Source: Lytechinus pictus (Eukaryota). Taken from it: a stretch of 64,000 bases of DNA. The stretch spans positions 22,074,001 to 22,138,000 of the forward strand of contig NC_087245.1 in the NCBI RefSeq assembly GCF_037042905.1, in the 5' to 3' direction. The position numbers were made by a program, and so were the translations under genes. This document shows, in pieces, positions 1 through 61,982 of this stretch (its first letter is position 1; each line of letters starts with the position of its first letter). Below the pieces are notes generated by a model. It was not told where the DNA came from. It worked only from the letters and a program-made list of their open reading frames with translations, and did not search any database.

Positions 1-419
1 ACTGGTCGAACAGTAATTATTTGTAAGTTCATGACCTTGTAATTGTTTAGCCTTATCTTTATTTTACCATAATGATGTCAGTGGTATATCTAGAGAGGCT
101 AGAGGTGTGATTGCTGTTCGAGATAGCTAGTTGTGACTTGTGGGTTGATTTTGGTTCCTGTCGGTATGAGCGGAGCGTCGGGCGGTCACGCGGAGAGCGG
201 AACCCCTTGTCTGTCGGCCTGGAATTCATTCGAACCTCCTTCCTAATGCAGCGGCTCTCTGAGCTCTGCTGCATGCTGAGTGCTACTGCTAGACCAAAAG
301 CTTCGGTCTCTGTTATGTTGGTTGTTCCGCTGAACTCCGTTGGCTCCACTCACCAATTACAGAGACCGAAGTTCTAGCTCGATCTGTACAGGGGACTCAA
401 TGGCCATATGTTTATGTAT

Positions 420-1270
420 AAATTATAAAATAAGTTCGGATAAAACAGGGAAGTGAAGTTGCGCGACAGCCGAAGTAAGTGAGTCACTCGTCAGAAGAGA
501 CATCACTGTTCCCCCCCCCCCCTTTTTTTAAGTTTATTTTTCCCCGTTTTGGTGAATTTCAGGCCAAAACAGAATAATAATCTTTATTTTGGAACAGTTC
601 TTTTTATATATTTTTATGAAATAAAGACAAAAATCGATGAGGGGGGATTTTGTATTGTTAACCCCCTAATGCCTGATGCCGATGGCTGCACGATAGCGAG
701 CCGTCTGTGTACGAGGAGAAATTTAAAAAATTTAAAAATGTTAAAAAACTCCTCGAAACAGACGGCTGCCAGCTGTCTAGCTGAGTGCTGTCACTCACGC
801 CGGCATGGCCCATGGCTAGACCAAAAGCTTTGGTTGTTCCGCTGAACTGCGTTGGCTCCACTCACCAATTACAGAGACCAAAGTTCTAACTAACCCAGGG
901 AGCTCCGTCCGGAGCCCAGGATTCGTCCATGTATTAGGCAGAGGGTACTCTCCAAAATGGGGTAGAATGGGGTCGTAATAGCACCCCAAATAAAAGGGGA
1001 AAAAATTAATTATGCACTTACCTCGATTATATGGATGAAGGTCTATCGTGACACAGAATCCTGACATCAAGGCACAAACAGGACCCTCAAAAAAAGGAAA
1101 AGTTCTGTCTCATTTGTTCTCCTTTCAAAATTGAAAACAAAATGGCTGATCGATACCGAGAACGAACGCGACATGGAGGTCTAACTATTCCTTTTTTTGA
1201 GGGTCCAGTTGGTGCCTCGATGTCGGGATTCTGTGTCACGATAGACCTTCATCCATATAATCCAGGTAAG
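420..1270 (+). promoter_or_regulatory. Candidate CpG-rich promoter / 5' non-coding first exon region of the hyccin gene
   Basis: Coding exon 1 has a splice acceptor 5 nt upstream of its ATG, so an upstream UTR exon is needed. This region is CpG-rich and has consensus donors GAA|GTAAGT (475) and CAG|GTAAGT (1266), plus ETS-like GGAAGTG and YY1-like AAAATGGC motifs. Confidence 0.4.
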
Positions 1271-24300: not shown

Positions 24301-27099
24301 AGATTGATTCAGAAGAATATATGAATATCATTCCATACCACCTGTTTATAAACAATTTTTTCCAAGTCTGATCTAAGGAAAGAAAAGAGAAGATTCTGTT
24401 TCAATTTAATGAGGATTAGTCCTGCAGTGTATTCCTTGTTGAATATTTCATAGACAGGTCTTGTCAGAGTTCTTATGAGGTTTGGGGATTTGCAACGGAA
24501 GCTCTGTGGTCATTTTACATAGCCACAACATGTATTGATGAGATAGAAAGATGCATTATTGGCCTACTTTATTGTCAGCTGATGCTTGGCTCTTAGAACC
24601 AGTTCAGACCAGAGAAAATTAACTCTCCACAAAAGAATAGTTTGCAACAAATGTTACAACACCCTCTATTATTTTTTTTTTAATAATGTTATAGAATGGT
24701 TTAAATGAAATTGTATTGTTTTATACTCTGATTACAATCAATGACACATCAAAGAACAGATTAGGCAATGTCAAGTGTATGCACTCAATGATTTACTCAA
24801 CTTTTGTAAATTACCTTCTTTCAGAAAAACGGCATGAAGTATTTAAATAGAAAGTACTCCAAAACCTGTGTATCACATGATAATGGATAACAAGCGGGAT
24901 TAAGAATATGCATCTTATACCCCTTTCATAAACCCAATAAAACACAATTATGCGGCTAATAGCAGCATAATTTGGTCGTAAAATCAGAGGAGGACAAGAG
25001 TTATCCGCATTATTCTGATGCTGCTATTATCCGCATAATAGCGGCATCGGGACAAGATTTTGAGTTTATGAACGTATTTCCAAATAATGCGGATAATTGC
25101 CATGGTGCGGTCACAAGGTCACCCTTTTCCAACACAACCGCATCGGAGCGGGCGTGTCCAGTTGTCATGACGATTATCCGCCTTTTTCAGGACGGGCGCT
25201 CGTAAAAATAATGCGGATAATTTTCGGAGTTTGTGAACGCAATTTTTATTGAATTATCCGCATTACTCTTAGGCGGCTAATTGGAGGATAGGTTTTATTG
25301 GGTTTATGAAAGGGGTATTATTCGCATTTGTATTCCCCGAGAGAGAATTATGGAAAGATAAATTTCCACATTTACATGCAGATGTTGGCTTTACCTCTTT
25401 GGTTCTTTACTTTCACCTCTGTGATTGTGAAATTCTGTTGCATGCTGGTATGTTTTATTTTATGAGGTTATAAATTGTTTATTCTTACATGTATATCTAG
25501 AATTTGGCATTTCAAAGAAATTGAAAAGAAATACCCATATATAAAAGGATGTAGGCCTACAGAGTAAAGAAAAAAAAAATGATTTACATGTACATGTATG
25601 CCAACATTTATAATGATCGTAAATTGATGTGAGATATGAATGAAAAATGTTTGAAAGAAGGAAAACAATTTTTTTCAGGAAATTTATGCAGATCTGCATT
25701 CAAACACAAATTATATGAACAGTAGGTGTACATGTACATTGAATAAATCATATTTCTGTACGTACAGTACTCAAAGGACAAAGACATTTATACCAGTACA
25801 GACACAAGTCTTGTTGATCATAGAGATGAAACTGTTGCCAATATACATGTACATGTATTCATTTCCACTTGATAAATCCCTTTACCTAGATTTTACCTTA
25901 TATGGGTCATGGTTATTTCAGGACGATTGATTTTGTATTACAGCAACTTGGATAACTTTTACACTTGACTGGAGTTACCGGTACCGTGCTTTCAACCATG
26001 TTACAACATATTACATGTAAATGCATTCACACCTGTCTGTTTAGGAATAATACAAGTACTTGTAAAATAATAATGAGAACTTGCTCTGGACTCATAAAAC
26101 CCAAATAGTATTTCTTGAAATTATGAAAAATGCACATTTCTTGAAAAGAAAAATTGCACATTTTCTACATGTATGTCTCATGCAACCAAGGAAAATATCC
26201 CTGCAAAATTTCTTGTAACTTTTAGAAATAACGTACTAATTTGCCAGTGACTTCACATCACTTTTGAAGATATCATTAATACTTTGCTTTCACTCAGGAA
26301 AATACCTGGCATTTTTTAATAGATAGGTATGAGAGCACCTTTGTATGTGAAAAGCTTCCTTCAAAAATCAGAGATGCCAAATTACTGACTTTTGCCTGAA
26401 TTCAGGCCCTGAAAACTTCCCATTGCAGGCATTTTCAGGCTTTATAATTTACAGCACATATGGGTCCAGGATTTAAAATGTTCTGCATTCTTTTCAGGCT
26501 CAGTGAGTAAAACTGACTGGTATCCATAGAAGGATAGATGAAGTAGACTGAAATGTACATTGAAATAAAACCTCAATAAGGCCGTCTGCACCATCCCGAG
26601 TTTTCAAATTAGCGCGCTATTTCTGATCCGGCAAATTATCCCGATCAGAAAAATCTTGAGATTGTTTGCAGTGCAGACGCAATTATCGCGCTAGTTCGTA
26701 GGATTAATCTCGAGATTGCAATCCCAAGTCAACTCGGGTTTATTTGCAAAATAGCGCGCTATTTCACGAATTATCCCGCTAATTCGTGGGTGCAGACGCA
26801 CTCGAGATTGGACTCGGGGTAATTTATTCATGACGTCAGTCCATAATGCAATTCACGTTCCACTTCCGCCTTGGTCAAAACATAAACACGTGCGAAAGTC
26901 AACTTTATACATGCGAATACATTATCGCGAATAGCGTTCATCAATTCCCCAATCAGCAACGATGGTGTCCCACCAGTGAAGGATAGTTGGGAGAGACCAG
27001 ACCGATGGGGGAGGCGCTCATTATCGACGATGGTCATAGTAACACTGACAGCAGTGTCGTCTTATTCCTTCGCAAAATGTGAGCAAATAGCATTTCTTT

Positions 27100-27136
<37 letters not shown>

Positions 27137-30100
27137 CGTTGCCTCCTTCTCCGCCATCGGGGCCATCATATCATTACTTCATCACTTCTCCACACGCTGA
27201 GCGCGGCTGAGCTGACAGGATTGTTGCATAACACCGATCGAATTCGGTGAAAGTGCTAGTGAAATCGCGGGAAGTTATTCAAAAGCGCGGGCCGTTGAAA
27301 CTCCAAGATCCGAAAGTGCGCATGCTCTGAATATTGGGCTTGTTGCCTCGCTCGAGCAGGAATCTCTCTTATTGCGATGGTGGAGACGGGGTTTCTTGAA
27401 TCTCGAGATTAATCGCGAAGAGGGCTGATCGGGCTAAAATCTCGAGATTGAGCAAACTCGGGATGGTGCTGCACCGCCTATGGTGTATATCTTGTATTTT
27501 CATACAAGATTAGAAAAAAAAATTACTCTATGATATTGATACCAAAAGACAGTGATTGAAGTTTGATCTCAAACACAATCGTATTCTGAAAGCCAAAATT
27601 TATCTGTAATGAGAAAGAGAGAAATGGGAAGTCTCCTTCTTTACAGGGCCAAACAATTGATTTACTTTCATCAGCTACATGTACATGAAAATAATATCTT
27701 ATCAAAAGCTTTTTACTCAGTCATAGTCTGAACTTTGGTTAAATTGCTTTACACTATCGTGATCTAAAACATGTTCCAGAATATTTTCAAATTTGCAGAT
27801 TTGCAGTATTGAGATGAAATGAAACTATCAAATAATTATGTAGTAGAAACTGTCTTGAAATCTCAATAGTTTTATTGTCTAGAAATAAAGAAAAAGCATG
27901 AATTAGCCAAGTACAATATGTAAGGACAATACAAAGAAAGTGCTTTTGATATTTGTTGTTTTCCCATAGTGTATTAGGGCACAAACAGACAATGTAGAGG
28001 ATATATTGATTTTAGAATTAGGTTCTCAACTGCAACAGATCTATACTTCAAAAAGGGAAATGATCCCTTTTAGTTTGATAGGCATGCAAGAGACTGATAG
28101 AGGTTTTAACAATAGTAAAGTCAAATGATAATTGTGTTTTATTTCAATATTCATGTGCTATGATACTGAATACTAATCACTTCATTATAACAAATCATTA
28201 TTACGACTTCAACATGTATTCTTTGCTCTTTTTTATTTTTTCTCTGCAGACAATTGGAAGAATAGAGAGTTTGCTTCTTGGTATATACAACCTGGTAAGA
28301 ATAGTACAAAAAATAGCTGTCAAGCTGCCAAAATAAATCTGTTTCCTAACCGGATTATTTTCGTAATCACTTCTGAGTATTTATTTCTTTATTCATTTCC
28401 TTTCTCTTTAATGTGTTTTCTTTTCTCTGTCTTTTTTTTTTTTAGTTAAACATTCCCATGTCATAAAAGTATGCCTTAATTCTTTAAATGTCTTCCCCTC
28501 AATTGTATTTATCAGGTCTTTTTATTGAGACTATCTGATCGTGATATTCCTCATTATGGTTGCCTCTTTCATTCAACTATAATGTTCTCTTTTACATACT
28601 TTGATCCATAAATTTGTTTGAAAAAGATTGTTTAATGAAATGCGATCAGCCACACTGTGACCTTTGAATTGCAACATATAGTTCCTTCCCTAGACACTAA
28701 AATGCATAATGTTCAATTTACATGTTATGAACCATTAACATGAGAATGCCTGAGAGCATTTTTATCTCCCTACTTGTGTGGGTTTATCAGACCGAGCAAG
28801 TTGAGTGCGAGGTGCCGGAATCATGTTGTGCGGTAATGGGATACTGCGCTGTTTAATCTTACTGTAACAGCTGACTGATATATCAAAGCAACCATTAAAG
28901 ATGATATTCAATTCCATTTATTGCATATTGTTCCATGCATGTCACATGAAATATTAATGATGCAATGGCAAAGTCAGGTCTGGTGTTGTGGGAATTTTAC
29001 ATGTACTCATTCAGAGAAAATCATAAAATATCCATTAAAATGATCCAAAAATTATACATGTATGTCATGCAAATGAATAGATAATGCATCCATTCTAACA
29101 AATAGAATGAAAAAAAATAAGATGACAGTTTAAAAAATGATAATTTTAAAAGGTTTCAATTTTTGTTACATACCGGTACTTTAAAAATCAGGTTTGAAAT
29201 GTCAGTTGTCATACATCCTGTATAATGCCCTGATATTTAAATAGAGAAAACAATCATGGAGATGAATAACCTTTAAATATCTCCTAATGATTGACCTTTT
29301 CGAGCTTCATGTGTATTAAAGTTAGAATGACATATGTGCATGCTCTAGCATATTACATTTCCATTTTTATTATACATCATTATGCCATCATCCATACATT
29401 TGTCATAATTTATTGCAGATGAGATTAATTTGTCTTCAAGTACCACCAGGGAACTATTTTTGTCCTTTTCCCCATTTCTCCCTACCCTTCCACCTCCCCA
29501 TGGAAAAATAATTCTTTCCATGAATTATTATTGTTTTTAATATTTGAACTAATTTTGAATCTCAGAAATTTCTAAATTCCCCTTCTCTCTTAATCTTCCA
29601 TTTTTTCTTTTCTTTTATAATAATAATGATAATGCAGTTCTTATATAGAGCATTTCAGACCTGAAAGGTCTCTCAATGCACTTTACAGAAATAAAGATTA
29701 TACAACATAAGGAATTACTTAAAATAACACTTAAACAACATCAACATTAATCAGTTACATACATGTATGGCATAAGTATTGGGAATGGTCTATTTGAATC
29801 TCTTTCTGTTCCTCAGTTTTCTGTGCTATTCTTGTGTTGTTGTTGTTGTTGTTTTTTGTAGCTTTTATATGGGTGAAATTGAACTATTGCATGTTTTAAC
29901 AGAGAAAGTTGAAAATGGCCATTACTCTACAAGGTCTCTGGCATTAATGTTGAAGCAGCTGTGCAAAGGAAAACAAAGATAATCATCACTATTTTCCTCT
30001 CAAATGTATTCACCCAGAAAAATAATATAATCATTATTCTTAATTTTGTTGTGATAATGGTTGATTACCAATGAACAGTCACCATATTTTCCCCTTGATA

Positions 30101-33100
30101 TCTACGATTTTCAGTGCTTTGAGATGTACATGTATGGTTGAGATTATGGGAGCGTATGCTTGGATGTATGTTAGAATTGCATAGTCATTTTTAGATTTCA
30201 CTTGTGAAATGATTATCAAGCTGATATATTCAACACATCTCCAGACTCGAATTGTGAATAAAAAGAACGTAATCAAAAGAATCAAGGCTAAGGTCAGAGC
30301 ATAGGCCTACTTGTAAATCTAAATGCCTTTTCCCAATATTAAAGCCTGTTAAAAGCTTGTTTGCAAGATCATTGCCATGCCACTTTTACACTGGGGAAAC
30401 CCCCTCCACACAGCCTATAAGAGCTATTGCCTTACTTCCAATGACAAATTATCAGTCAGTTTAGAGTTGTTGTTTTTTGTGTGACTGAAGTATATGCGAT
30501 GTAAATTTACATGGGTGTACATTGTATATTGGAATATCATGTTAATAACAGAATATTGACCTTTACATTATGTATTGGTGATTCTGAATGAAAAGTTGAA
30601 TTTAGCCACTAATCAGACAGAGCACCTTCCTACAAGTATGTAGTAATGCTTTCATTTGCTTTTAATAAAGACCCTTGAAACACTTTAAATATTTAAAAAT
30701 GGAGGGATTGAAAATGGAGGGATCCATCGATTTGTTTTCCTTTAATACCTATAATAGTTTTTGTATTGATCATATTTTTACATGTGTGTTTCAGGATTTT
30801 AGGATGAACTCTTTCATTTTATCTGATAGTGAATTCAAGCTTAAGATTTACCAAAACTTACAGTAATGCTGTGGTTTGTGCAACTTGACCAGCCTTTCCA
30901 AACACGAACCATGCACTTATATGTTTACTGACAGTTTGACTTCTATAGTCTTCTATCATTTATTCATTCAATGTTGCAATTGTAATTCATCTACATATAG
31001 TATGCTGGTGTCCTATAAAAATACTCAGTGGGTTGTAGCATGCATCTCGCTGTCCTGAGCTAGCTCACGAGACCAGCTAATCTCCAGACACCCTCAAAAT
31101 AGACCATTGGTTCACGGTGTGATCAATACTGATTAATTCCCTTCAACTGCTTGCTTATCAAAACCTACAATCACCGTGAATACTACAGGGGCAATGGTAG
31201 TGCATTTCATTTTAATATCATACATGTACTTGTACAGTATGTTGCTTACTTGTGGCTTAGCATTTTATATTGACTAATGTATAAAAAGGGTTATTGAAGA
31301 GTGATGAATTATGTAAAAAAAATGTATTAAAGATAGAATCACTTCATTTTTACTTCTTTACAAAGTCTTCCTTTCTACTCTGTAATCTTACTCCTCTCAT
31401 CCCTTCCCCTTTATCATTAATTTTTCTTTCCTTTCCTGCATCTTTCATTTCATTATGATTTTCTTTCTTTTGTTATGTATTCTTCCTGTGCTCCTCAATC
31501 ATTGTCCCCCTCTTCCTTTTTCTCCTCTCTCTCCTTTTCATACCCCTCCCTCCCCTCCTCCACCTCCCTCCTTCTCCCCCTCTTCCAACAATAACTCAGA
31601 CTATCGTTTTCAGTCTCTTCAAGTTCACACCTGCATATTAAAGTAATATTGCAAAGCTTTACAGAAGAATGATATCAGAGTGGTAAATTCATTACCCTTT
31701 CTCTCCTCATTATTCCCCAATGTACAGGAGGTTGTAGAAGCTGATGGAACTCCCAGAGCAGAGACATTCACCATTCCAACATTGGCAAGGCCATCAATAT
31801 TCCATGAGGTATATTCCAAAGGCCATGTTTACCCTGGTGTGACCAAACTGTTTGGGAAGGGAGAGGGAAGAAGTATTTTTTTTTAGATTCGTTATTCAGA
31901 TGGTTCAGTAGTTCGAAAATGGAATAAGGTTCATGTAGTTCACTTAGTATTAATTTTGTAAACCTAATTTCATTTTCAAACTATCAAACTTTCCAATTTT
32001 TTTTTCTTTTGATCGGCATAGAATCATAAGAAATGCTGTCACTGAGGACCCTGTAAAAGTGGTGTATATTGTAAATATACATGAATCATATGATTTTAAT
32101 GTTAACACAAAAATAAACGATGCATATACATGTACAATGAATGTGCTAATAAAAAAAACACATGAAATATGATCATTTGGGTATCAATGTTTAAGTCATG
32201 TAGATCCTATTGAGGTTGATACTGCAATGAAGTAAGTGGAGCTAAAGGCTATATGCATTTTTATGGCTTACAAGTTATTTTTTGTTTTAATAAAAAAAGG
32301 CTTGGGACAAGCGTTAGTGACATTTATATAGAGAGGCAGGATGTTATTATTGTTTCCTATGGTTTTCTGTGTTGTTATGATAATCTACCACATTATCAAG
32401 AAACACGAAACTCGAAACACTCCCCTGGAGGGTATAATAATCGTAGAAAAAAATGAACATGTGTTTGACAGTGTAGTAAATATTTGAACGAGTTCCAATC
32501 AAATGTATTAGCTTTTTATATTTTTTTTAGATGTGTTATTTCATATACAAGTTTTTAGTTTAATAGGCAAGCTGTTCTACACCATACAAATACATGATTA
32601 TGTGAGTTGAGGGTTGTTCAAATAAGGTATGTGATCTTTTATTCGAAACTGGATGCATTTTAGTGACCTTTTTATATTATACAAACTAGGTTTTCAAAGA
32701 TATTTAGTTGTGTTTGAGTTATATTTTTTGATGTAATCTGTTGTAAAAATATCTTTCAAATCACAAAATTGAAACAATGAAAATTTACATTTTGTAGCAT
32801 GATTCTATTAAGCATAGCCACATACCTAATTTCTTTAACACCTCAATGCAATGTAAATCCTAATTGTGATTCCAAGGCATCATTATATTTGGCCTACTTC
32901 AGGGCCCCGTCTTACAAAGAGTTACGATTGATCGGATCAATTGTAACTCTATGGAAATCCATCATTGTCATAATTTTTTTCGCCGAAAAACTTGCACAAT
33001 GTCCTCTGTATGCAAAGAGAAGCGCAGTGAATTTTCAAGAAAACAATGAATGCATGAATATACATCGTAGCTAGAAAATATTTTGAACAAACATGCATAA

Positions 33101-36100
33101 TAGATGATGACTTTGCTGGCTGTCCAAAGTTAAGATTGATCGGATCAATTGTAACTCTTTGTAAGACAGGGCCCTGGTCTGGGCATGATGGGCACACCTT
33201 AAATTGACCTTAACTTTCTTGATCGAAATGTGCAGTACAGTGTGCATTGCAGCAGTGGCACGTCTTTGAACAAGGGAGAATGAAAGGTATTCCTTCAACA
33301 CTATGCAATAGTATCCATTTACTGTTTTCCATCTTCAGAAAATTTCAAAATGCTACCTCTGATTAGTCTGCAGGCACAGACCCTTGGGCCCATATTCTGA
33401 AGTCGGGTTTAAAGTTGTCGTTTAAGTATGGACAGCCAATTGTTACATGATACATGTAAATCACTAATGGTAGAGATATCATATTTCAGCTTATTTGACT
33501 CTCAAATCATTCATAATTGTCTAGGAAGTATAAATAGATGATTGTCTTCACCATCGATGAATCAGGAAAGAGCAAAGTAAACATAAGAAACATACAACTT
33601 AAAGAGGAATCCAGCCTTGGCCATTAAATGTTGTGTTGGGAAGGAGAAAAATAAATTAAACAGAATGGTGAAAGTTTGAAAGAAATCGGACAAGCAATAA
33701 GAAAGTTATAGCTGCTTTAAAATTGAGATCACTAATACTATGTAGATTTCAAATTGGCAACTGGGTAAGTAAACTATGACAAGGGGCAAGGGCAACTTTC
33801 CCATAGGCCATGTACTTTATTATCAGGGATTTGTGGTTTTCTCTTAAGTACCCATTCCCCTGGGGCAGTAATCTAAATATAACCCAGGTAGTATATTGTT
33901 TTATGTCCTCATGAAGGAAAAATATAATTTGAAATAAAACTTTTGGGGAAAATGACGTTTTAGCCATAATATGTATTGGAGTACATGGAAGAGTAGTCCT
34001 TGCCTTACATCATATGACATCCCATATGTGGCCAATTTGAAGTCTCCATGGGTGTAGTGATTACCAATATTTACAACTTATAAAAATTCATAACTTTCTT
34101 GTTATTTGTCCAATATTGTTCAAACTTTCACCTATCAACTTGTCTGATTTTTCTTTTTCATATAAAAACAATTTTTTATTTGGGTTGGATTCCCCTTTAA
34201 TAAAAATTTTGATATTTTTGCCTTCCCATAATTTTAGCACAGAGTCAGTTAGGTCTAAGTTAAATCTGACTTCAGAATACAGGCCTTGGTGTTTGCAATT
34301 TGCATACTGCATAATGCAAAGTCTGAAGTGGTGAGACTAGATTCACTATGTATAATGGCTGGCTCTTATTTGATACGGACAGAGTCTTTGGAGTCTAGTC
34401 TTCACTCTAGCCCTGTTATTGGTTGAAGCATCAAATATGAGTCTGTACTTGTAGGCTAACCTCTGATATACATGTACATCTAGAATATATATTAATGGTT
34501 TGGTCATTCTTGTCGAATCTCCCTGCAGCCGATGAGTCCACTGTCGCTGTCTGATAATATTCTTCTCAGTCATCAGAACGATCATACTGTGCTCACCAGA
34601 GGGCCTCTTCCACAGATCAGTACTGTCAACGGTCAGAACAGGTAAAGTAGAATCCTCATCTAATTTAGCCTTAGCCTGTTCCTGGATAATACCATGTCCG
34701 GGCCCTGTCGCAGAAAAGTTACTGTTATGGTTAGGCCTGATTATGGTAACTTTCCCATAATGGTAACTTCCATTGTAACAGTGTCAAAAGGCGATGGTAT
34801 ATACTGGCTGTAGTTGGGTTTTGTAATGTGCAGACTTTTCGTCAGAGCAATTATCACTGTAAAAAACAGGGAATCTTAATACCCTGTAATAGACACAATA
34901 GAGATTCTCATTTAGATTTTCAAAATGTTTATTGTTTCTGTTGTTATATGAGGGTCTAACCATGGTCAGAAAGAAAGCATTTCTCTTGATAGTTTATTCC
35001 AATGTTTCCTTCAAAACATTAGGAATACCTGTTGATAAAACCTGCATATATTTGCTTACTGTTGTACTCTCTGTATTATTATATTTACGATTTGTTTATT
35101 TCATTTTCCTTGTTTTATTTTCAATGACCTTTTCCTATTTCCTCATAAATTAATGGTTTTGCGATAAACAAGCAAGTACTCCCAGCACAATATGAGCACT
35201 TTACAATTTCCTTTACAATTTCCTGTACATGAATTATGTGCAGAAAGGAATGACTATTAACAAAATATTTGTGCCATGCAGGATTAGATGGAAGCAGCTT
35301 GTACCTGGTGCTGAAGATTAGTTCTCATGTTCATCTTGCTCCTTTTTGCAAGGCAATTTCTTTTTATATAGATTTTATTGTATTATTAAATAGAAAAAAA
35401 TTCTCAAGGTTTAGATTGCTTTACTCTTCAAATATGCTACAATTATCATTATTGTACCATTATTTTTTATTCTTAATGAACATGAATATATCACGTCATT
35501 TTGATTGATAATTGCAAGATTTTATTATTGTTCAGTTGTTTAATGATTTGTTTGAAAATTATTATCTGCGGTGTATTTCAATTTTTGTTATTCTACTATC
35601 ATAAAACTTCATAAAGAACAAAGTCATTTATAAAAAGACGTTTGTTTTAATACGAAAGAAAAAAATTATTCAATTGAGGGCAAGAAAGGAGTATTCTAAT
35701 AAAAGATAGTGCTATGGTGGATTAGCCATGGATATGACTATATTGGTTTTACATGAAAATATAAGCTATGGTCAAGGCTATTGTAATGCTTAAGTCTGGA
35801 TCACACCTTTGCATTCTAAACTGCGTATTGCTGTGTTAGCTGGGAAGAGCGATACGCAGCCTAACGCAGTATACTACGCATTAAAATATTTGTTGCAGTC
35901 ACACTTTTGCCTAGAAGCTGGTACAAAGTTGCACACAGCATTAGTGCTGTCGTAAGCCACTCACTGTTGCTTTTTCTTTTGCATTCTTGTTCACATTTTC
36001 TTGATGCCACTTGTCTTTGCTCTTATGAATTTTGGTTGAGTTCTGTTACAAATGTTTAAAAGAAAATGTCAAACGACCATGCTAATATGCAAGGCCTCTG

Positions 36101-39100
36101 CATTAGTCTGCTTATTGACCTTGTATTAGCTTGTTCCATTGCGTTGTGTTGCATTTGACTGCGATTATGTGCGTTCAGGCAATTCGTAGTTGAACGCAAG
36201 CCCGAACACAAGCCCAAAACACAAAAGTGTGAGCCATGCTTTACCCGATTGTTTTGTATTCAAAACTTACATGCTTTCCATTTACCGGTAAGCTTGGTGT
36301 ATATTCACTTTGTCTACTAGCAGATGGTCTGATTCTCAGATCTTCGCAGATCATCATCATAGCTAAACCCTTTTGATCTACTATGAAGTTTGTCCAATTG
36401 CCATTTGGTCTAACTATCACTTGGTCCAATACCATGCACATGCCCTCACTCTCATTTGGTCTAATGCCGAGGTGGTCTAATTACACTTTTTCTACATATA
36501 CTTTTTTTGCACTTGTCAAATGAAAATTTGGTTCATAAACAGTCCATACTTGTGTATGCTACAAGGTGTTGTTTAATAGACCAAGTGGATATTAAACGAA
36601 GTGGGTATTTTAGCATAAATGGAAGTTAAGACAAAATGGTAATTGGACCAAATGGAATAGTTTACGAAATAGTGGACAAACTGGTTTTAAGCAAAATAGT
36701 AATAAATCGTGTGGGAGGAGATAAACCGGAAAGTGGACAAAGCAGGTATAGACCAAATGGCAATTTGCCATCTTGGTCTGCTGGTTTCACAATGAAGCAA
36801 AACCTTATACTTGAATAAATCTTATAACCTTTCTTGTATTCCCGCAGGGGTAGTATCATATGTCATGTACTGGCCCAGTATAACGCTGATATAGGCTTCC
36901 TCTCTTCACTCTCACTTCAGTCCATGTGTGCAGTCTATTCAAGGTAATTATCCTGGTTTTCAGACCATTGGCTTCACTTATTAAAGGGCAAACCCACTTT
37001 TAAGATGGAAAAGGAACACAAAGGGGAGAAATATACTTGTACATAATTTCAATAGTGACAGTGTTACATATACATGTACATACAGCAAGGTCTGATTATA
37101 AAAGTATTGAGTTACAAATTTTGTCAGACACCAGCCACTTTGGTCATGATTGACAAGTAGCTTTTATATTTTAAAGGTATAGTGTATGATTGGTTGATCT
37201 CAGACAAGGGCAATGAATCAATTTTGAAATTATTACATTCATTAAATACCTATATTATTGCTCTATTTTATCACGGAAAAGAAACTTGCATAACTTTTAT
37301 ATTTTCATGATATTGAGGGGTGAAACATATATTATAACAAATATCGGTTAAACGAGATAAGGTTGAACTTTCCTATTGACGCCCTCTCGGGTTAAAAAAT
37401 AAATTGATATTAGAACACCGTTCGAATCATGCATATTCATTACGACCTCATGCATATTGATGAAATACGTCATGGCGCATGCGCAGTATCAAGAAATCAT
37501 CGTATCAACAAAGTGCAGTACTGTGTGTGTAGCTGAGTAGAAAGCAAACATCGAACGGTGCGTGCAAGCTCAATGAGCCGATGCTAGCCGGCTAGCGACA
37601 TGCTTGCGCTCTGCATTAGTTTCAGATATAATCCACTATTAGCGATTGCACACACAGGATACTAGTAGTTTCAGGATTGTATATCGTACGCGTGAAAAGG
37701 GATTCAGACACGTTGAATATCTGACGTGAATGACGAAGCAAAGGATTGCCCAATACGGCTTACTTTTGGAATCTTATGTCATGAATCTGAAAGTATACTC
37801 CAAAACTAAAAGAGATACGAGAATCCCAGAGATGGGCAAGGGCCGAGTTCCGAGTTTGATCTTTCTTCATGTGGATTGTAGCTCTTTTATGCACCTTTTC
37901 CCTTCATGTATAGCTTGGCGTGCTACATACGGGAACTAGAGCGAGGAAAGGGGGAGGGAGGAGAGAGAAGAAAGAAAGAAGTGAATTAGTGGAAGAGAAT
38001 CAGGAGAGCCGTTATAAAGGGATCTGAATACAACCATGGACCTATTCGTAATAGGTCCATGATACAACATACCCTAATTTGATATTTTGGTGGGTTTTTT
38101 TATCTTTCCTGAATGTTTCAGTCAGTTTCAGATTATTTGGCTCCACTCGATCGCAAAGTACAGAGGAGAAATTGAAAAAAAAAGGGAAACCAAAAATATT
38201 TAAAACTCTAAACAGACGGCCACCACCATTCTGTCTACAGCCAAGCATGAAGAAAGGGAAAGGCGAAGAGAAAAACGATTACTTTCAGGGCGGGTTCTAC
38301 GATATAAAACAGGGTTTGTTTAATACGGGGTTAAATATAGGCCTATAGTAAAACCATAGAGCTATTAACATAACGAAGATGAAACCCCAATGCAGGGTTA
38401 AATATAGGCCTATAACCCAATGCAACACTTGACTACTCTTCGTTTGTTTAGATTGAACTCGCGAGGTCAAAAGGTGAGCTGAGAAACCTGTTGATGCGAA
38501 GTACGTACGTATAGTCTATATTGTGTAGACCGTGATAGCATGATTGTGACAACGCATCAAGTTGCAGATTTCTATTATTTCTGTTAAACCGAGTTTTTAC
38601 CTGACTGCTAAGAAAGCACGAATGCCTGTGAGCAAGCAACCAGGGGACCAACGGCTTAAGGTCGAACAAGCAGAGTAAAGGCGTCATGAGTAAAAAAAAA
38701 TGAGGGGGGCAGACATGACGTCAGGGACAAGATTTCTGGGAAAAGTCTCATTTTTTGCATCCACACAAGAAAGCTTGCATCGAGATATGGAAAAATGAGA
38801 AGTTGAGTATTGCGCGGTGCTATGGTCTAGAACCGCTCTACGTATTCAGAGTTGTGATTTCCAGGGCCGACCAGCATACATGTAAGAGTTTTACAACATA
38901 ACTTTAAGGCACGCTGTGGGACAAAGTGAAACAACGTATGTGAGAAAAGACTAAGCAAACCTGTAGAAGCAGCAACGTACAACATGGACTCACGACCAGT
39001 CCATGGGTCGCCGAGTTTTTATGCAGTATGGGGAGGGGGTGGGGGTAGCCTACAATGATAATAATAAAATTTGTAGGGCGCTTTATACTTTATACAATCA

Positions 39101-42100
39101 TGGACCTGTTAGGTCCATGCTATAATCAAACCATCAGCACGACGAGTGGATGGATGACTGAAAGAATGGATGGATAGGCATATATAAATGGATCATCCAA
39201 TTGATGTATTTTCCCAAGAAATGGATGGTCAAAGAGAATTGGATACAAATGATGCAGCAATAGATAGGGGCACCCCATGGGAGATCAACTTGCTACCCCT
39301 TCATAGACAGTAAACAAGTAGAAAGAATTGATAAAAAGATGAAATTTTATAGCAACAAATGAGAGGAAGAAAGGCCTCCGGGAAAGGCCTACATGTATAC
39401 GCATACAGAGTGTGCACGAGCAGTTCAACCGTTGAAAAAATGTGAATGACTGCGACATGAGCAGGACAAAGACATTACTTTCCGGCATTACTTGCATCCG
39501 GGACTTGCATCTTGATTGGCATAACATTTTAGACTTATTTATCAATGGAATTGTAACTCCCATTTCCCTGTTATAACTATAGGAAAAACGAATGATAACT
39601 GTTGTTTTATAGACGTGGAAATTTATGCTTCATATTAGGACCAAAGAGATTCTGGCGTACGTGTCAATATTTCAAAACTCATGCGGGAAAATAATATAAT
39701 CATTTTTTATGATTGAAAAAAAAAGTGCCAAGTTCACACTGTCACGATTTCTTTTTGGTGGCGGTGCTGAGGTAAATTTGACAAAGCAAAAGAAAAACAT
39801 TAAAAAAGGTTCCAATACAAAATGTTGGTAATTTTCCTACATTTATCCAATTCGACACCTATACCAGAATTCCAGGGGGAGCTGCCTACATGGAAAATAA
39901 TGCACGCCGCACCCCATTGTAAAATCTTGGGGGTGCTTTGCACCCCCGGTTCCAAGGGCCATAATTATAATCGCGGAATAATTAATCGTATCAGATCAGT
40001 CGAGGCGATCGTATTGATCGTAGAAATGGTTGGAATGGTTCAACTATGTGGTGATGTGGCTTTTTTTGCAGGATTTTTTTGCATTTATTGGAATAATATA
40101 CAAAACAAATTTACAATGCTTGAGACATGATCATAATACAAGTGACAATCTTATATGTAGTGACTGGAGAAATACAATATATAAAAAAATATATATATAA
40201 TGAGTAAAATGCAGAGGCAAACTATATACAGTAAGCAAATATGTGCTTGAAGCATATAGCAGCCAAAATGAAAATGAAATTTCGAAACGAGTCAAAAATA
40301 AAATTTTTATTTTGGGGCAAGCCCCATCTGGCGACGTTTAATGGGTATACGCTTTTTCTGATCATGGACCCTGATGTACTTAATTTATGATGATGTAATG
40401 CACATGTGCTGCCGATGAAAATATAATATTTTGCCTTTATGGGTGTTTTACAACTCCAGGGGGATCAATGAGAATACAGTAATAGTTCTGAATACGCACT
40501 GAGAGAAGTGAAGGCCGGGGGGGGGGGCACTTCCATTGACGAGTGGATACCATGCGCGACCATGGGGTCTCGAAAAGCACCCAAACACGTATTTTCCATA
40601 TTCTGAAACTGCACCCCTTAACAAGTATTGGCGTCTCAAACCGACCCTTAACAAGTATTGGAAACAAAACGATACTCTTGGCAAGTATTCCCGAAATGAA
40701 CCCCTAAACAAGTACAGCGATATTTTATTGTTATGTCGGGTCCGTCGGTCGTTGGTTTTACCCTTACACATCATTATTTTGGTTTAGTACGGCCCCACCT
40801 TCCACAACTCGCGCAAGTCGGACTCTAAACACGTAGTGTTGGGGCAAAAAGGACATCCTTTATAAAACATTTTAATTTTGTTTCATCATCCCCGAAAATA
40901 TGACCCTAAACACGTAGCTTTCCTAGCAACATATATACCCTTTTTTCAATATTTTTTGTGTTTTTGACAAAAAGACATCCTTTTTACGTGTTTTTTGGGT
41001 CGCGCATGGTATCCACTCGTCAATGTAAGTGCCCCCCCCCCCCCCGGAGTGAAGGCAAAGCGGTCATGGAGCATGCAAGCAAACGAGTAATTATAATTCC
41101 TTGAATAGTCATACCATAATAAAGTTGGAGAGGATAATATTGAAATAAATAGAAAAATAACATTAAAAAATGCGAACATAAGGAATACACACAACCCCCA
41201 ACCCAAGGCTAGGAATTGTGTAAACATCGAAAAATACAGAAAGATGTTAGGAACCATGCTTGAACTATTCATGAAAACAACCATTGGCGTAAATAATAAA
41301 CGTAAAAAATATGAATTAAGGGGCCAGATATATGTGTCGGGCACAAATCATTTTTTATCGGTGATAGATTTTGACATAATATTCAGATATTAGTTCCCCT
41401 TCTCGCTTTCTTTTTGTATTGGCCGTGACAAATTTGGGAATCCATATAGCCCCAATCCTTCCCCATTATTTTGAACGCCACTGATTTCAACTGGATATCG
41501 TCAAAAAATATTGATTGATTGATTTTATTTCGCAAGTCACCATAATATATTTACAGTAGCATTAAAAACAACAGGCTTACACAGGATGACCCACGAAAGC
41601 TCTAAAGCTATTTTCCAGTGGGGAAATAGGCTTTACCTTGTAAATAAATATTACCTTGGAAATAAGCTTTACCTTGTAAATAAATATTTACAAGGTAGTC
41701 AAACTGACAGCAGATGCAGCGTGTAAACACAGTATGAATTTCATTACATGATAATAATAAAATGATAATTACGTAATGTCATGGGTAATGAAACAAGGAT
41801 GGGACGTTTTGTAATTCGCTACGCAGGCTTTTGATAGTAAAGCTGATGAAATACAGGGTTGAAAGTAAAATAATGAGAAAGACTGAAATGAAACGATCTA
41901 TTCAAAATATAAATTCCATGAAAGAGAAGCGATTCAAACAGAGTATTATATTGCGTTTACATTCCCTTTGATTCATATTATTTTGATTCCCTTTCAACAA
42001 TCTACTTCATTCTTTATTTCTTCTCTCTCCTCCATGCCCCCCTTCCCTTTCTTGGGGCGGCGGGGGACGGGGGGGGGGGGGGTATCGGATATGAGAAAGC

Positions 42101-45100
42101 ATGCAGTTTAGGTGTTATGGCACACTCAATTTAGTGGCCTAGTAGGTCCATTGGTAATTGCCAAGTCGTCGACTGCCAAGTGCCAACTTGCACTCACCAC
42201 ATGGTCTGATTTAATTTAGTCCATATCCATTCCGTCCATCAATATTTCGTCGAACAACTATTTGGTCCAGTATCCAATTCATTTTCATTCATTTTGCACA
42301 ATAGCACGTTGTCCAATTAGACCAAATGGTATATGGACTGAATGGCTATTGGATCAACTGGTTACTAGACGATAGTGGATGAACATAATTATGGTAGACT
42401 TTAATGATAGTAGGCGAGTTGGCAATTTGACGATTTGGCATCAGACGAAATGGAAGTAAACTGATCTGATCCATGGACTTATATAGTATCACACCGGTAT
42501 AGATAAAGAGGTACAAAAGTGGAAACGATGCCCGACGGACATGCGCATATCCAGGATTTTGCACCACGAGGGGGTCACTATTTTTGCGCCCCTGTGAACT
42601 TTTCGGAAAATTGCACCCCGACCCGACCACTCAGGCAATAAAAGTGCCTAAATGCATTTTGAATTGTCTTATTCCACAACCACGTGAAAAAGGCAATCGA
42701 AGACCATTTTTTTTAATGTGTCCATGTAAAAAAAGATCAAAGTTGTATCCACTTCTTGAAAAGAATAAATGCGACCAGAAAGCATAGAATTTTTAAGCGT
42801 TTTGGGGTTTCAATTTAGTTCAACTTTTCATCAGAGTGGTAGACCATACTAAAATTATGTGCGGGAGCTGTAATTTCTTAACCGGGGCTAGATCCAGCTT
42901 TCGCCAATAGGGGAGGGGGATATTTTCATCTGTTTTCCGATCAAACATTCTACGCTTTTTGCAACCGTGAACATGATATGTATATGAATTATTTAAACAA
43001 TTATTATTGATACGAGCGCGAAACGTGAGCTGAATTTTTTTTATATTCTGACCTAAAATTTGGGGGAAAAAAATCTATGAGCACTTTTGGCAATCAAGAA
43101 CAGGATGGGTATCTATCAACATTTTATGCGATCACGAAGTGCGAACTAACAATTTTTGAATTCCCAATCCAACACTGGACACCATAAGCACTTTTTATAA
43201 CCATGAACAGGATGGGTATATAGCTAAATAATTAATGCGAGCGCTAAGCGCGAGTTCAAATTTTTTGATATTCTGACCTCGTAAATTTGTGCGAGTGCGA
43301 AGCACGAGCTTAAAAAGTGATTGATATTTTGACCTAAAATGTGGACATTCTAAGCACTTTTGGTAATCATGAACAGGATTGTCATCTAACTAAACATTGA
43401 TGCGTCCGCAAAGAGCGAGATGAAATTTTTTTCATATTCTTACCTAAAATTTGGACATTTGAGTAAGCATTTTCGGTTATCATGAAAAGGATGATCAGTA
43501 ACAAAACAGTTTATGCGAGCGCGAAGCGCGAGCTGAATAAAAATCTATATATTTTGATATAAAGTCAGACATTCTAAGCACTTATCTTACCATGAACAGG
43601 ATCAGGATGAACAGGATGAACAGGATTGGGGAGGGGTGGGAGCCAATCATGTCACTACACATGTATAAAAACAAGTTAGCCTGCGCTTTGTGTTCGCATT
43701 GCCTGTTCGATGGAACATGCATCTATTCATCTATACCAATTCATTTATTGATTTATTCATTCAGTCATGGTTAAACAGGTTCACAAGTTCAGAGTTATTA
43801 GTATATAAAATCATAGTAACAAGTACAATAACAAGGTATAATTTATATCAAAATAGTATGAGACATAAAGAAATATTAACTGATCAATGTAATACAAAAC
43901 ACGGAAACATTGTTGAAGGGCTTATAGTAAAACGAACAAGGGAACTAAATAGGCCTTTACTTATTCAAATTTTTGAGCACCTATTATCCGTCAGTGTGCA
44001 TCTTGTTTAATGATCATATTGCTCAGATCAATTTTCAGGACACAATACACAGTCCGAAAATAATACCTCACGCTCGCATTTTTTATAGGGTTTAGTACTG
44101 TTACGACTATAGATTCCAACAAAAACTAGCTTTGGGCTGCCGATCGATCGGGAAAAATGTGGATGAAAATATTGTTCACCCCGGCCCCGTTATTAGTGAA
44201 AGCTGGATCCGCCCCAGAATATATTGTTTTAAAAAAAAGGCATAGGCCACGCGGTATTTGTCATTTTTTAGTGATAAATACATTGAGGTAGTATATTGAC
44301 AAATAATCACTGGAAGAGAAAGAGCATCTTATAGGCCTATATAACGCACAAAGCAAAATAATGAAAAATGGCGGCCAAGCTAGTTCAATACAAAATGATT
44401 TCCTTTTCCTTTAAAAAAATGTTATATACAACACGTTATAATAATGAACAAATCAAAATACAGAACCTGAAGAAATTGATTGATTGACAATTCAGTGAAT
44501 CGGAATCGAAACAAAAATGCGTATGTAAATATAATTATAAAATAGAAATAAAAAACGGGGAAAAAAATAAGAATAGCCCTTTCACAAGCAACCATAATTC
44601 TCCCTCCCTTCATACCCTGGACAAGTAAAGAAAAAAAATACAGCTAGAGAAACGAAGCAAAGATGAAAAGCAAGGAAAGGGAAGAAAGCCGTCTCTCGGT
44701 ACCTGGTACTCTGCCCAGATATCAGGACCTATTCTCCGCGATTTGAAAAACAACGTGCATAACATCACAATTATTATGATAGTCATTTCAAAAAGTTCCT
44801 TGGTTGTTTCCAAGTTATTTAATTTGCCGTCGAGGGACTGCGCGAATGCACACGCTCCTACAGGATATGAATGAAAAAGTCGCAAATAGACTCCGCCGTT
44901 CAATCCGATACTGTACTGTATAGCCGGTATACAGATCGGCACGTGAGACAAGCGCAGAGGCGATGGATATGAATATTCATGAGCAGGTATTGATGTCATT
45001 TGGTCTCAAGGTGGCGCTCTTCATTTTTTATGTCAATTTCAAAATCTGCATCAAAAGAAAGCTCACTTGGCAAAATTTCTCTTCTTTATATATTTTTTTG

Positions 45101-48100
45101 AGAATAAAAACAGTTCTTTTGGCCAATGCAATACATTTTATGGACTCAGAACTTGTTTATGAGTATTTTGAAAAGCGAAGAGTGAAATCTAAAAGAAAGT
45201 TTTGAAATAAACCAATGTCACAATTTACCTTTAAGTGAGATCAAATCAATCTGAAGAGATTTCATTGGTTTGCAGTTTATGAAAATGTATTGTAACAGCC
45301 GTTAGAATCAATCAGGGTTCCCAGCCCATCAGGGAAATCAGAAAATTATTTTACTTTTTTCCAGTCAGGGAACAATCAGGGAATTTGATTTAAAAGATAC
45401 CTCAAATCGTGGAAAATGCCTCAAATAAGGGAAAAATCAGGAATTTTAAGAAGAAAGTCGAAAGCTTGGTAGTCAGTCAGAGTCTGTTATATTTTGTTGC
45501 ATATTAAAACAACATCCATTGAATGACTGGTTATGGTGGTACTAATTAGTTTTACACTATTGTTTTTATACTAAAAATCCATGCAATTCACTGCAACAAC
45601 TTAGAAAACATGCAAAACTGGGAATGGGTTTAAATAATTATCAGGGAATTTTTAAACTTCATCTGGGAAAAATGAGGGTATTTTGTTTTCTTGAAAAGCT
45701 GGGAACCCTGTCAATAAAGGTAGATCATCAATGAAGATTAAAGTAAATTTTTGGATTTAAAAAGTTTGAAGACCATACCTCTGTTATAAATTTGTTATGG
45801 ATGCATACATGTTGTAGCCAAGGATTTTTGTTTAATGCAAGCTCATTGTAATTGAACAATACATTGTAAGTAATGTTACAATCACTGTGATAAAAGTTGC
45901 ATGTATGGATTGATTCAAAATGTACTGTATGGTAAGCTAACCGGGGGGGGGGGGTTAAGTGTTTTGGCTGTATTTTTCATACTGCATGCACATATACTTA
46001 TAGTACATTCCACTTCTCCAGTATGATGGGCAGATTAATTAAATTTCTGTATAGCTTATATCTTGATAATATACATTACTTGATGTACATTGACACTTTT
46101 CTATTTTCCTGATCTGCAGACTTGCCCTGACTGGGTTTAGTAACAGCATTCCAGGTCATCCACCTTCCTCCTCCACCTCATCATCATCAGGTCAAAGGTC
46201 AAAGAGCACTGACCTTCATCTTAACCTTCACAACCATCCCAGGATACCCCTCACACCCAATATCCTCCTAGAGATGATGACGGGGGTCTATTTTGCGATG
46301 TAAGACTTCTCTCCTTTTTTATATTGCAGTTAAACATGAATTTTTTGTTGTGGTAACAATCACAATATGATTTTGAACAGAATCCAACAAAATGAACTAC
46401 CCAAGTGATTGCATGTATCATAGGATACTATGTACCGAACGATTTTACCTTGCAGTCATTTCCCCTGAAGTCCTCTGCCAGGAAGGGTTAATCAGGGGTC
46501 ATATTCTGAAAGCTCTTTTATCTTTTCTTGTAACTTGTTTGTAATATTCACTGAGCGTGCATGACGGAATTATTTTCCTGGTATCTCATCGCTATTAGCT
46601 CCACATTTTTTAAAAGACTGCTGACAGAACTTTACTGAGACCTTTTCTCTTGTGACCAAAAATGCTAATCAAATTTGTTAAGCAAAATTATTCCCATCAT
46701 GATGTCAGATCTAAATAATATGTAAAGTTAAAAATTGCTCATAAATTTTTCTGTGTACAAAATAAAATATGGAGATAAAAGGTATTATGAAGATTCTCTT
46801 TATCGTTTTTAAATTTTAACTTCCTTGGAAAATACAATGAAAAAATACAAGGGGTAGAGGGCTGTTGTAACTTATTGTTGCAGGTGATATTTCTCGGTCA
46901 AAAGTAGACAAATGAATAGATTTGAGAGCTTTTTGTTGTTTCCCATTTTATTTCAGGTTCAATGGGCATGCTACAGCAGCCACTCAAGCTCTTGAAGACA
47001 TCCACTTCAGGGCAAGCTACGAGCTCTATCCAGAGGTCCTTCTGGTTACCAACGCCATCAAGAACTCCCTTGAGACTAATCCCTCAGGTCGTCCTAGCGA
47101 TGGACCCGTCGGTATCAACATTGCAGTCACTCCAGCATCTCCTGTAGTTAAGAGAGCAGCTATCACAAATGCATCCTTCAAAAATAGGAGAAATAAAGGT
47201 ATGCTGACTTATGACTATATAAAGGTAGTGGGTACTACTCAGCTATGGTCAATTAAAACCTGTTCTATGGTTATGTGATTCTGGTCATTAGATGGTCAGT
47301 TATGGTCATTTATGCGAGGAATATCCAATACGAGGGCAATTTCTTTCAGTTACCCCAAGAAGCTGATCACTTACTGGATAAATATTGCTCCAAGTGAGTT
47401 GATATACAACTTTGAATATAATTACCTATTATTGTTAACACAGTGTAAAATGATGTACGTTAAATATGAAGGGAAATAAATTTTTACATTGGGAGACATA
47501 TCTCTCCAAATAAATTTGTTTGAATAACATTTTGCTGAGGATCAGACAAGCTTAAATGTCTTGTGCCATGTCTAATATCATATCATCTGTTCGATGTAGA
47601 TGTAATGTAATTTTTAGTTCGTATTCTAGATTTTCTGTTACATACATTTTATTGGCACTGTGCATACAGGTTAAATTCAGTCTATGACTGCCAGTCATTA
47701 TTTTGCAATGACCTTGATTTCTAGCAATTTTTGTGCTCCCATTGTTCTCAACCTCCCCCCCAAAAAAAAAAATTTTTTTTTAGTGATGATCTTCTTGTAT
47801 ACCTCTTGAAAACTTAATTGGAAATTGTTGGATTTTAATTGTTCTTTTGTATACCTTCTTCAGCTGATACACCAACTACCACAACCATTACAGTCATGAT
47901 TGAAGGAGTGGAGAAGGGTGACAGGAGACTTCCAAGAAGTGCAGAGAAAATCGTAGTCCGGAAAACAAATTCTGATCATGTAACAGACGATCAACGGTCA
48001 CCACGTAGCCATGGAAACAAGGACTTTCATGAAAACGGCACCAAGCCCGACGAGTCTCATCCGTTGATCAAACAAAGGACCAGTAGAAGCCTTGAGGCTC

Positions 48101-50006: not shown

Positions 50007-50728
50007 CATGGACCTACTAGAGACGGACACCCACAACTAATTCACAAGCATGTGACCATCATTGTGCTCTGAATAAAATTCTCTTCATATTTTTCTACTT
50101 TCATCCTACCGTGTTCCGCTGTCAATTAGGCCATGAGTTGAAAGAAGCAGTTTGTGATTAGACATTGATATTGCACAAACTGTATGCACAGAAGATGATG
50201 AACCACTTAAATCCTGGAAAATCAATGTACAGTTCTGGTTTACCTTTGGCAATCTTAGTTCTGTGTGTTTTCTTTGGGAAAATGTACATTTATGCATATT
50301 TTATTTTAGAGGCAATATTTTGATTGTCTATCATGTATAATCCCATTTTTCCAATTTTCCTCCTAATAATCAAGAGATAATGGCTCATATCGTGTAGAGA
50401 GCAGTATCTTTTAATGTTTTTTAGGTCATTATGTGCGTGCAGATTATTAATAATAACATATTTTATGTCACAAAATCGTCTGTTTCTTAATATTGCTGCT
50501 TCAAATCTAGAGCATGTTGATTGAAAAGCATTTTCTAATACAGCGCATCAGCCAACAAAAACCAAAACCAGGAAAGATGCCCCTTTGTAAATTATAAGAT
50601 ACGCCTTGGTAGTCGCTATTGTCAAAACACCTGTATGTTCTCATTAAGATGCATATAACACTAGGCGGCAGATCTTGTTCGATCAAAGAAATGAATAGCG
50701 TTGAATGTCCATATCTAATAGGTCTATG
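50007..50728. mobile_element. P-element-like non-autonomous element with 7-bp TSD, nested in a Harbinger-like MITE (about 49988-50797)
   Basis: TIR CATGGACCTACTAGA / TCTAATAGGTCTATG, TSD ATAAAAC / ATAACAC. Host ends GGGCCCTGTTGCATAAAA / TTTTATGCAACAGGCCCC. Confidence 0.7.
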
Positions 50729-61501: not shown

Positions 61502-61982
61502 AGGGGCAAATGTCTTCACGCTGACGAAGTTTGTTGTAAAAATAAAAGAAAAAATAATGAAAAATATTGGTGAAGATTTGAGGAAAATTCATTAAAGGTT
61601 AATAAAGTTATTAGAATATAAAGTCTTTTATGGCGTCATATACAAGCAGCTGCCCCATATGTTATGTCCTATAAAATGCATAAATTTCAATTTTTAAAGG
61701 TTGTCTTCTTTCAGGAGCGGATGTAAAATAATTTGTTGATAAACTGAAGGTTTAAAATAGAAACATTTTCATTTTTTTGAGAAAATGACATTTCATTACT
61801 TTTTTTAATTTACGATACGTTGGGAGCTGGTTGCATAGGACGTCACAAATTTTTAAAAAAAATCAAATTCTAATAACTTTTTAAATCTTTGATGGATTTT
61901 CCTCAAATTTTCACCAATATTTTTCATTATTTTTTTCTGATATTTTTACAATAAACTTCTTTTTTTCAGGGTGAACTTCCCC
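61502..61982. mobile_element. Degenerate palindromic TTAA-ended element (partial relative at about 14972-15300)
   Basis: Inverted arms AAAATATTGGTGAAGATTTGAGGAAAAT / ATTTTCCTCAAATTTTCACCAATATTTT. Right end GGGTGAACTTCCCC|TTAA. Confidence 0.6.

Follow-up and report, generated by a model that had tools for sequence, protein, structure and literature searches.

A 27-bp Palindrome in an Intron of Lytechinus pictus, Most Likely the Scar of an Excised Transposon Related to the P Element

Introduction

The two strand cuts made by the transposase of the fruit-fly P element are staggered by 17 nt, a trait treated as peculiar to this enzyme, and the break left in the donor DNA is repaired by recombination or by end joining (PMC7776569). 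The resulting junctions contain both copies of the target duplication and, between them, stubs of the two element ends, and are generated from 17-nt 3' tails by alternative end joining (PMC2895639). Among the joins that keep the stubs, an overlap of two bases is the commonest (14 and 5 isolates in Table 1 of that paper), blunt joins are rare, and insertions are common (PMC2895639). The target duplication measures 8 bp in the case of P and 7 bp in the case of Galileo and 1360 (PMC3698922), and the target consensus of Galileo is GTANTAC (PMC4168063); the word 'footprint' is absent from the available text of these two accounts of Galileo and 1360 (PMC3698922, PMC4168063).

Outside insects, the zebrafish element Pdre, excised by the THAP9 transposase (zfTHAP9), has TIRs of 13 bp and is flanked by 8-bp duplications (PMC10983969). 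The available text of that paper, its supplementary excision figures aside, contains neither 'overhang' nor 'junction' and gives no cut depth, and the available text of an account of human THAP9 (PMC8230255), again with the supplementary excision figures aside, does not contain 'overhang' and likewise states no cut depth. In the literature searched, no inherited P-type end-stub scars outside insects were found, a weak negative given the thin coverage of subscription journals and Repbase, and no P-type stagger other than 17 nt was found within the same incomplete coverage. Nearly precise excision of Tn10, which is independent of the transposase, leaves a palindromic remnant of one fixed size between the target duplications.

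The locus described here lies in a stretch of 64,000 nucleotides of the genome of the sea urchin Lytechinus pictus (contig NC_087245.1), referred to below in its entirety as the window. Its 27-bp palindrome is most likely the scar of an excised cut-and-paste transposon related to the fruit-fly P element.

The Palindrome and Its Empty Site

In the earlier note on this DNA two copies of ATACAAC enclosing 27 bp were described as a perfect 7-bp target site duplication (TSD), a description that proved exact and with which the empty site presented below agrees (Table 1). The arms of the insert, 12 bp each, are perfect and flank a centre of three bases; the hairpin reaches z = -6.65, with none of 200 shuffles being equally stable. 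Among the 220 short palindromes of the window it is the only one that combines arms of at least 12 bp with a 7-bp direct repeat, and such a combination was produced by none of 12 Markov simulations. Its build is that of a fly-type footprint, consisting of two end stubs only, with both target copies kept. ATACAAC matches four of the six fixed positions of the Galileo consensus, and the three target sites of the window family, too few to be used alone, each loosely follow RT...AY. CANRG serves as a label for P-type termini (CA...TG); those of the window family, as well as of the sister family discussed below, start with CATGG or CATAG, a CA...TG type that by itself is not diagnostic of the P superfamily. 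The observation at 38035-38061 is real and most likely exemplifies, in a naturally occurring variant, what experiments in flies have revealed; as a single stub it is probably neutral intron DNA.

Table 1. Features of the window discussed in the text.
Feature	Position	Strand	Remarks
Left TSD copy, ATACAAC	38028..38034	+	Sole copy left in the empty site of X1, X11, and X12
27-bp palindrome, most likely a scar: left end stub of 12-13 nt and right end stub of 14-15 nt of a P-like element	38035..38061	.	Absent, together with one repeat, in three of four runs
Right TSD copy, ATACAAC	38062..38068	+	7/7 identical to the left copy
Palindrome of 23 bp sharing the first 7 bases, other family, status uncertain	38983..39005	.	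Lacks a duplication in the window
Further scar of 21 bp, older, sharing the termini	39099..39119	.	Flanks 5/7; spanned by X1, X11, and X12 contigs
Non-autonomous element (722 bp) from a sister subfamily, with imperfect TIRs of 23 bp	50007..50728	.	Flanks 6/7
Host gene hyccin (FAM126)	22841..47275	+	Pfam PF09790; exons at about 22.9, 31.7, 46.1, and 46.9 kb

Four of the 16 public runs listed (X1, X5, X11, and X12) were aligned to positions 37500-39400. In X1, X11, and X12, which come from two studies, a contig joins 38026 directly to 38061 (sides of 38, 83, and 67, respectively), and the 34 letters skipped are the 27-bp insert plus one 7-bp repeat. X5 does not contain this joint, the region being covered there in short pieces only. 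The existence of an empty site without exactly 34 bp in three of the four runs indicates that 38035-38061 is an insertion with a 7-bp duplication. These three runs share about 60 substitutions relative to the window over 1.9 kb, and therefore represent a related haplotype or species. Of the filled and empty alleles that had been proposed as a check, the empty one was thus recovered, whereas no filled (parent) allele at 38035 occurs among the loose ends listed from the four runs, whose contigs drop rare variants. Two other discontinuities, a 148-bp skip in X5 (one contig, side 24) and a 31-bp skip near 38971 in X1, were too weak to be used.

Variants of the stub of 28 bp, with one extra base behind 38046, were also encountered, the base being C on seven contigs of X5 and A on five contigs of X5, one of X11, and two of X12. 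They sit on short contigs with the flanks out of view, and so are identified by the stub sequence alone. Both 28-bp forms can be read as 15 + 15 - 2 with a CG centre, the window 27-mer being one base shorter. An assembly artefact was rejected as the origin of this class of scars, as the junction recurs in independent data and the flanks pair correctly.

Further Palindromes and the Long Copy in the Window

The stub at 38035 is one of a multi-copy class, with three palindromes within 1.1 kb and the 28-bp variants on other contigs. Two of the three, with the same terminus, had been missed in the earlier note (38983-39005 and 39099-39119; three sites against 0.01 matches expected), and the chance of three such sites falling within 1,085 bp of the 64-kb window is 0.0009. 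All three are located in the hyccin intron between the 31.7 and 46.1 kb exons. A relaxed scan of the window for further scars gave two matches against 0-2 in 30 simulations, and the second of them (61770-61787) was dismissed as chance.

In the 21-bp stub at 39099, position 39108 reads A in X1, X11, and X12, in agreement with the family end; together with the spanning of the stub by these runs, this indicates that the scar is inherited and older. Position 39053 is T in all four runs, which makes 39050-39056 identical to the right flank of this stub, and two X5 contigs run from 39056 directly into its first bases. The stub and its left duplication may have been parted by a later 42-bp insertion (39050-39098). 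A 21-mer identical to the 39099 stub, with 7-bp flanks matching at 6/7, is present at L074:728-748, on a contig of 38% GC from another data set. As for the palindrome at 38983-39005, its 15 inner letters are swapped for 46 others in X1, X11, and X12, and the sequence immediately to its right is an imperfect inverted copy of its left arm.

In the 37-45 kb block around the palindromes CpG is not depleted (0.68-1.12 versus 0.2-0.6 nearby), and the cluster at 38035-39119 is possibly an insertion hot spot at unmethylated, perhaps regulatory, DNA. The 70 bp at 38594-38663 are a fragment, truncated at both ends, of a repeat with a very high copy number (summed depth of 17,000-70,000 in three runs). 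Elsewhere in the window, an array of units of about 420 bp at 8455-12822 is broken at 9096-9896 by a Penelope-like piece, which holds a GIY-YIG frame (Pfam E = 4e-4, below the cut-off).

A longer copy of the family had been placed in the earlier note at 50007-50728, with termini shared with the stub and a 7-bp TSD. Its position and shared termini stand, but the TSD is not perfect (ATAAAAC/ATAACAC). The two ends of this copy are alike over 23 bases, of which 19 match. The stub agrees with them in its first 12-13 bases but not beyond, and consequently the two are assigned to sister subfamilies and not, as had been supposed, to the very same family. No Pfam match was obtained in the five scanned of the 20 frames of at least 25 aa in the 722-bp element. 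About 60 bp inside its right end, at about 50657-50671, lies what we take to be a CTCF-like motif.

End bases 2-7 of the 722-bp copy recur at positions 17-22 on both ends (50007-50028 and 50707-50728). This internal repeat, at offset 15, is merely suggestive, with 370 and 164 of 5000 shuffles being as good, and it is absent from the end of a long copy of the sister family (L052). In a complete P element, L170 (see below), the ends have a comparable repeat, at offsets 12 and 18 and spanning a variable TA run. The end repeat, statistically weak as it is, could reflect the strand-to-strand pairing known from the fly structure.

A Sister Family in Another Host

Metagenome contigs were scanned for two 10-base ends at most 30 bases apart, inserts of up to 50 bp being thereby covered, and at least 120 loci were found. 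Most of them belong to one family from one other host, here called the sister family, which shares the first 11 end bases with the window family and has 8-bp duplications; the likeness of the ends was built into the search pattern and is in itself no evidence of kinship. Of the 120 rows listed, 20 fell outside the sister-family filter, and the remaining 100 were grouped by flank into 68 sites. Two of these (L011; L028/L042), having no duplication and a different inner sequence, were removed as not belonging to the family, which left 66 sites. A stricter filter (94 rows, 67 sites) gave a distribution of the same shape among the matches listed.

Among the matches listed, the inserts at these 66 sites are of 42 bp in 27 cases, 40 bp in ten, 41, 43, and 50 bp in one case each, and shorter in 26, while none measures 44-49 bp; at least 20 length classes are represented. 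The duplications at the same 66 sites match at 8/8 positions in 49 cases, 7/8 in six, and 6/8 in one, are 7-bp-like in two, unscorable in one, and absent in seven. One of the last, L099, turned out to be a 54-bp compound insert with a perfect duplication, so that six true unlike-flank joins remain among the matches listed. The target consensus, also among the matches listed, is GT....AC: with the 48 perfect duplications read on both strands, position 1 is G, and position 2 is T, in 52 of 96 cases each. This agrees with the palindromic target preference (GT...AC type) of the P superfamily.

A long end of the sister family (L052:1643) runs past base 22 into unrelated sequence, from which it follows that 42 bp corresponds to 22 + 22 - 2, with a GC overlap, and 40 bp to 21 + 21 - 2, with a CG overlap; a blunt 21 + 21 join is excluded as the source of 42 bp by base 22 in this end. 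A 4-base overlap nearer the tip occurs at two sites versus 27 for the 2-base overlap at base 22 (among the matches listed), which argues for fixed cut ends and not for deletion at the best overlap. Judged by these inserts, the sister family has an apparent sharp upper length limit of 42 bp, with arms of about 22 nt, that is, the junction pattern of fly P but not its 17 nt. A limit near 2 x 17, as predicted in the earlier note, is therefore not what this family exhibits. The stubs of the window family, of 21, 27, and 28 bp, fit arms of at most 17 nt and a total of about 34 bp, but their number is too small to reveal a limit.

Several single cases complete this picture. The 50-bp scar of L046 (978-1027) contains an 8-base insert repeating neighbouring sequence, and is situated upstream, at a distance of 320 bp, of a THAP exon that belongs to a different element (340-657, minus strand). 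A third family is represented by one insert of 46 bp (L116), which has a GC centre and corresponds to 24 + 24 - 2. At one sister site the insert is of 40 bp in three contigs and of 42 bp in a fourth, more distant contig, which could also be due to slippage. In L090, the right flank of the 42-bp stub (301-342) is the reverse complement of the left one, the fold representing either a sister-chromatid fusion or an assembly fold-back.

Transposase Genes

The Pfam scan comprised 150 reading frames: 21 of the window, and 129 of the 208 frames of at least 100 aa that the retained metagenome loci contain. In L080, the segment 2774-3163 gives a match to PF21787 (E = 4e-31) and one to 6P5A, the structure of the fly transposase (E = 8e-5), and is preceded by two THAP exons (PF05485). 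A 42-bp palindrome of the sister family lies 137 bp before the ATG of this gene encoding THAP and PF21787, the other end of the element being outside the view. The other side of the palindrome is reached by a LINE-like frame, recognised by eye and giving no Pfam match, and the flanks of the palindrome do not match. In the simplest scenario for this arrangement, a copy would have inserted into the end of its own parent, and excision would then have used the outer of the left ends and the inner of the right ends; possibly, two separate sites were joined here, one of which belongs to a P element from a different family. The homologues include a THAP-bearing protein of Lytechinus pictus (P0027, 61% identity), which indicates that this transposase clade exists in sea urchins.

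Upon alignment of P transposases to prokaryote genomes, one of the 33 candidates was confirmed. This is a complete, intron-bearing P element of 3,912 bp (L170:8846-12757), beginning with CAGAG and flanked by a 7/8 duplication, with its ATG about 135 bp from the left end; in this relative the identity over the compared piece amounts to 59%. The likeness of its ends to those of the stub families is weak, 55-179 of 2000 shuffles being as good. It is located on a 111-kb contig that is filed in a bacterial MAG and looks eukaryotic, and its presence there is probably due to contamination. The same alignment to viral contigs confirmed none of 200 candidates. The two-end pattern had no matches in viral contigs, and the single-end patterns (1 and 48 matches) yielded an opposite end at two of 49 loci, with duplications at 0-2 of 7 positions, and were discarded as chance. 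A tblastn search of the whole window with 67 P-type proteins gave no match. Of the autonomous THAP-P transposase proposed as a further check, the part that can be affirmed is that a sister palindrome adjoins a THAP-P gene in L080, whereas no transposase with window-family ends was found in the scanned frames, the viral contigs, the prokaryote genomes, or the window.

Discussion

The 27-bp scar was probably made by a P-superfamily transposase whose excision leaves long 3' tails, followed by end joining. A P-superfamily element would have inserted at ATACAAC with a 7-bp target duplication, as is the case for Galileo and 1360. The transposase would then cut one strand at the edge of the element and the other inside the terminal repeat, each donor end would keep a long 3' single-stranded tail of element sequence, and the two tails would be end-joined, with slight trimming and an overlap of one or two bases, into a 27-bp palindrome between the target copies. 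We infer the membership of the window family in the P superfamily, the staggered cut itself, and its depth of about 15-16 nt here and about 22 nt in the sister family. The reading as a P-type excision footprint, advanced in the earlier note, has held as regards the insertion, the 7-bp duplication, the ends-only content, and the locus being one of many; support for the P mechanism comes from the sister family, with its sharp length limit, 2-base overlaps, and link to a THAP-P gene, but a limit near 2 x 17 nt is not supported. The six unlike-flank joins fit the joining of donor ends and cannot be made by a mobile mini-element.

Three alternatives deserve consideration. It is unlikely that the interior of the element was lost without a transposase or during gap repair, the TIRs pairing as a stem and the loop being lost at a short overlap, in which case, much as with Tn10, the length of the TIR would set that of the remnant. 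In the window the stubs, of 21-28 bp, are far below twice a 22-bp TIR, and in the sister family the 2-base overlap beats the available 4-base one 27 to 2 (among the matches listed), while the six unlike-flank joins and the templated-looking 8-base insert of L046 are signs of break repair. This explanation is kept in play by the reading of the sister TIR from one long end, by the TIR of the 722-bp copy, whose 22-23 bp equal the arm length retained in the sister family, and by the restriction of the scan to remnants of at most 50 bp. Somewhat less likely still, the palindromes would be mobile micro-elements (tiny MITEs) and the shorter forms later deletions of a master copy. Indeed, 27 of the 66 sister sites (among the matches listed) carry a 42-mer of the same length with young, perfect duplications, and, as a counterpoint to donor-end joining, every shorter sister stub among the matches listed is also derivable from this 42-mer by deletion; the duplications of the shorter forms are slightly more decayed (6/32 vs. 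1/24), a difference that is not significant (Fisher p = 0.22). Also in accordance with mobility, an empty site exists and no filled one occurs among the listed loose ends. Micro-elements are, however, difficult to reconcile with at least 20 length classes with varied junctions, with six sites without duplication, and with the site containing both 40 and 42 bp (barring slippage); moreover, 27-42 bp cannot hold the internal transposase-binding sites that fly P needs beyond its TIR (PMC7776569).

It is very improbable that the same kind of scar stems from a transposase outside the P superfamily, such as a hAT-like one or one of an unclassified DDE family with CA...TG ends. Ends of this type and duplications of 7-8 bp also occur outside P, which counts in favour of this explanation, as does the outcome that the transposase of the window family was not found in the data searched. 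Palindromes left by hAT enzymes are, in turn, made of flanking DNA and not of element ends, whereas the palindrome at 38035-38061 is absent from the empty site and matches the ends of a longer element. In addition, L080 ties the sister ends to a P gene, and among characterised cut-and-paste elements the 17-nt stagger is described as distinctive of P (PMC7776569).

To return to excision by a P-superfamily transposase, there is an even chance that a long staggered cut is general to such transposases across animals, with a family-specific depth of about 15-16 nt, 22 nt, and, judging from L116, perhaps 24 nt. Such differences would be taken up by the looped-out, partly disordered transferred strand of the fly structure, and the cut position of an extinct or uncultured family would be preserved to the base in its inherited scars. 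While the type of footprint is already known from fly experiments, what is added here is an empty site for the locus, a distribution of 66 sites (among the matches listed) with an apparent 22-nt arm, and the link to a THAP-P gene. From scars of this kind it may become possible to read, in genomes, the depth at which each family cuts within its termini. Provided that natural scars do preserve the cut, sequence alone would allow a survey of the mechanism throughout the superfamily, the ancestors of human THAP9 included, and a 22-nt stagger, if true, predicts a precise outcome for one in vitro cleavage assay. Germline end joining, too, is documented naturally by these scars, in their 2-base overlaps and templated inserts.

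Among the known systems, Galileo and 1360/Hoppel share the 7-bp duplication with the window locus, and Galileo differs in its long foldback arms, as opposed to the short 22-23-bp TIR of the long copy in the window. Zebrafish Pdre is similar in being a non-insect P-like element with short TIRs, but the excisions by THAP9 in cell assays leave larger flanking deletions according to the available text (PMC10983969). The Tn10 remnant is likewise a palindrome between target duplications, yet it has one size, in contrast to the many sizes below a limit and the repair-type junctions found here. In comparison with P junctions of Drosophila melanogaster, the duplication in the window is of 7 bp instead of 8 bp, the 17-nt tail gives way to an apparent length of about 15-16 nt in the window family (from few data) and of 22 nt in the sister family, and natural inherited scars, known solely as sequences, take the place of induced events. 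Common to both are the two end stubs, the overlaps of 1-4 bases, the small insertions, the rarity of blunt joins, and a hard upper length.
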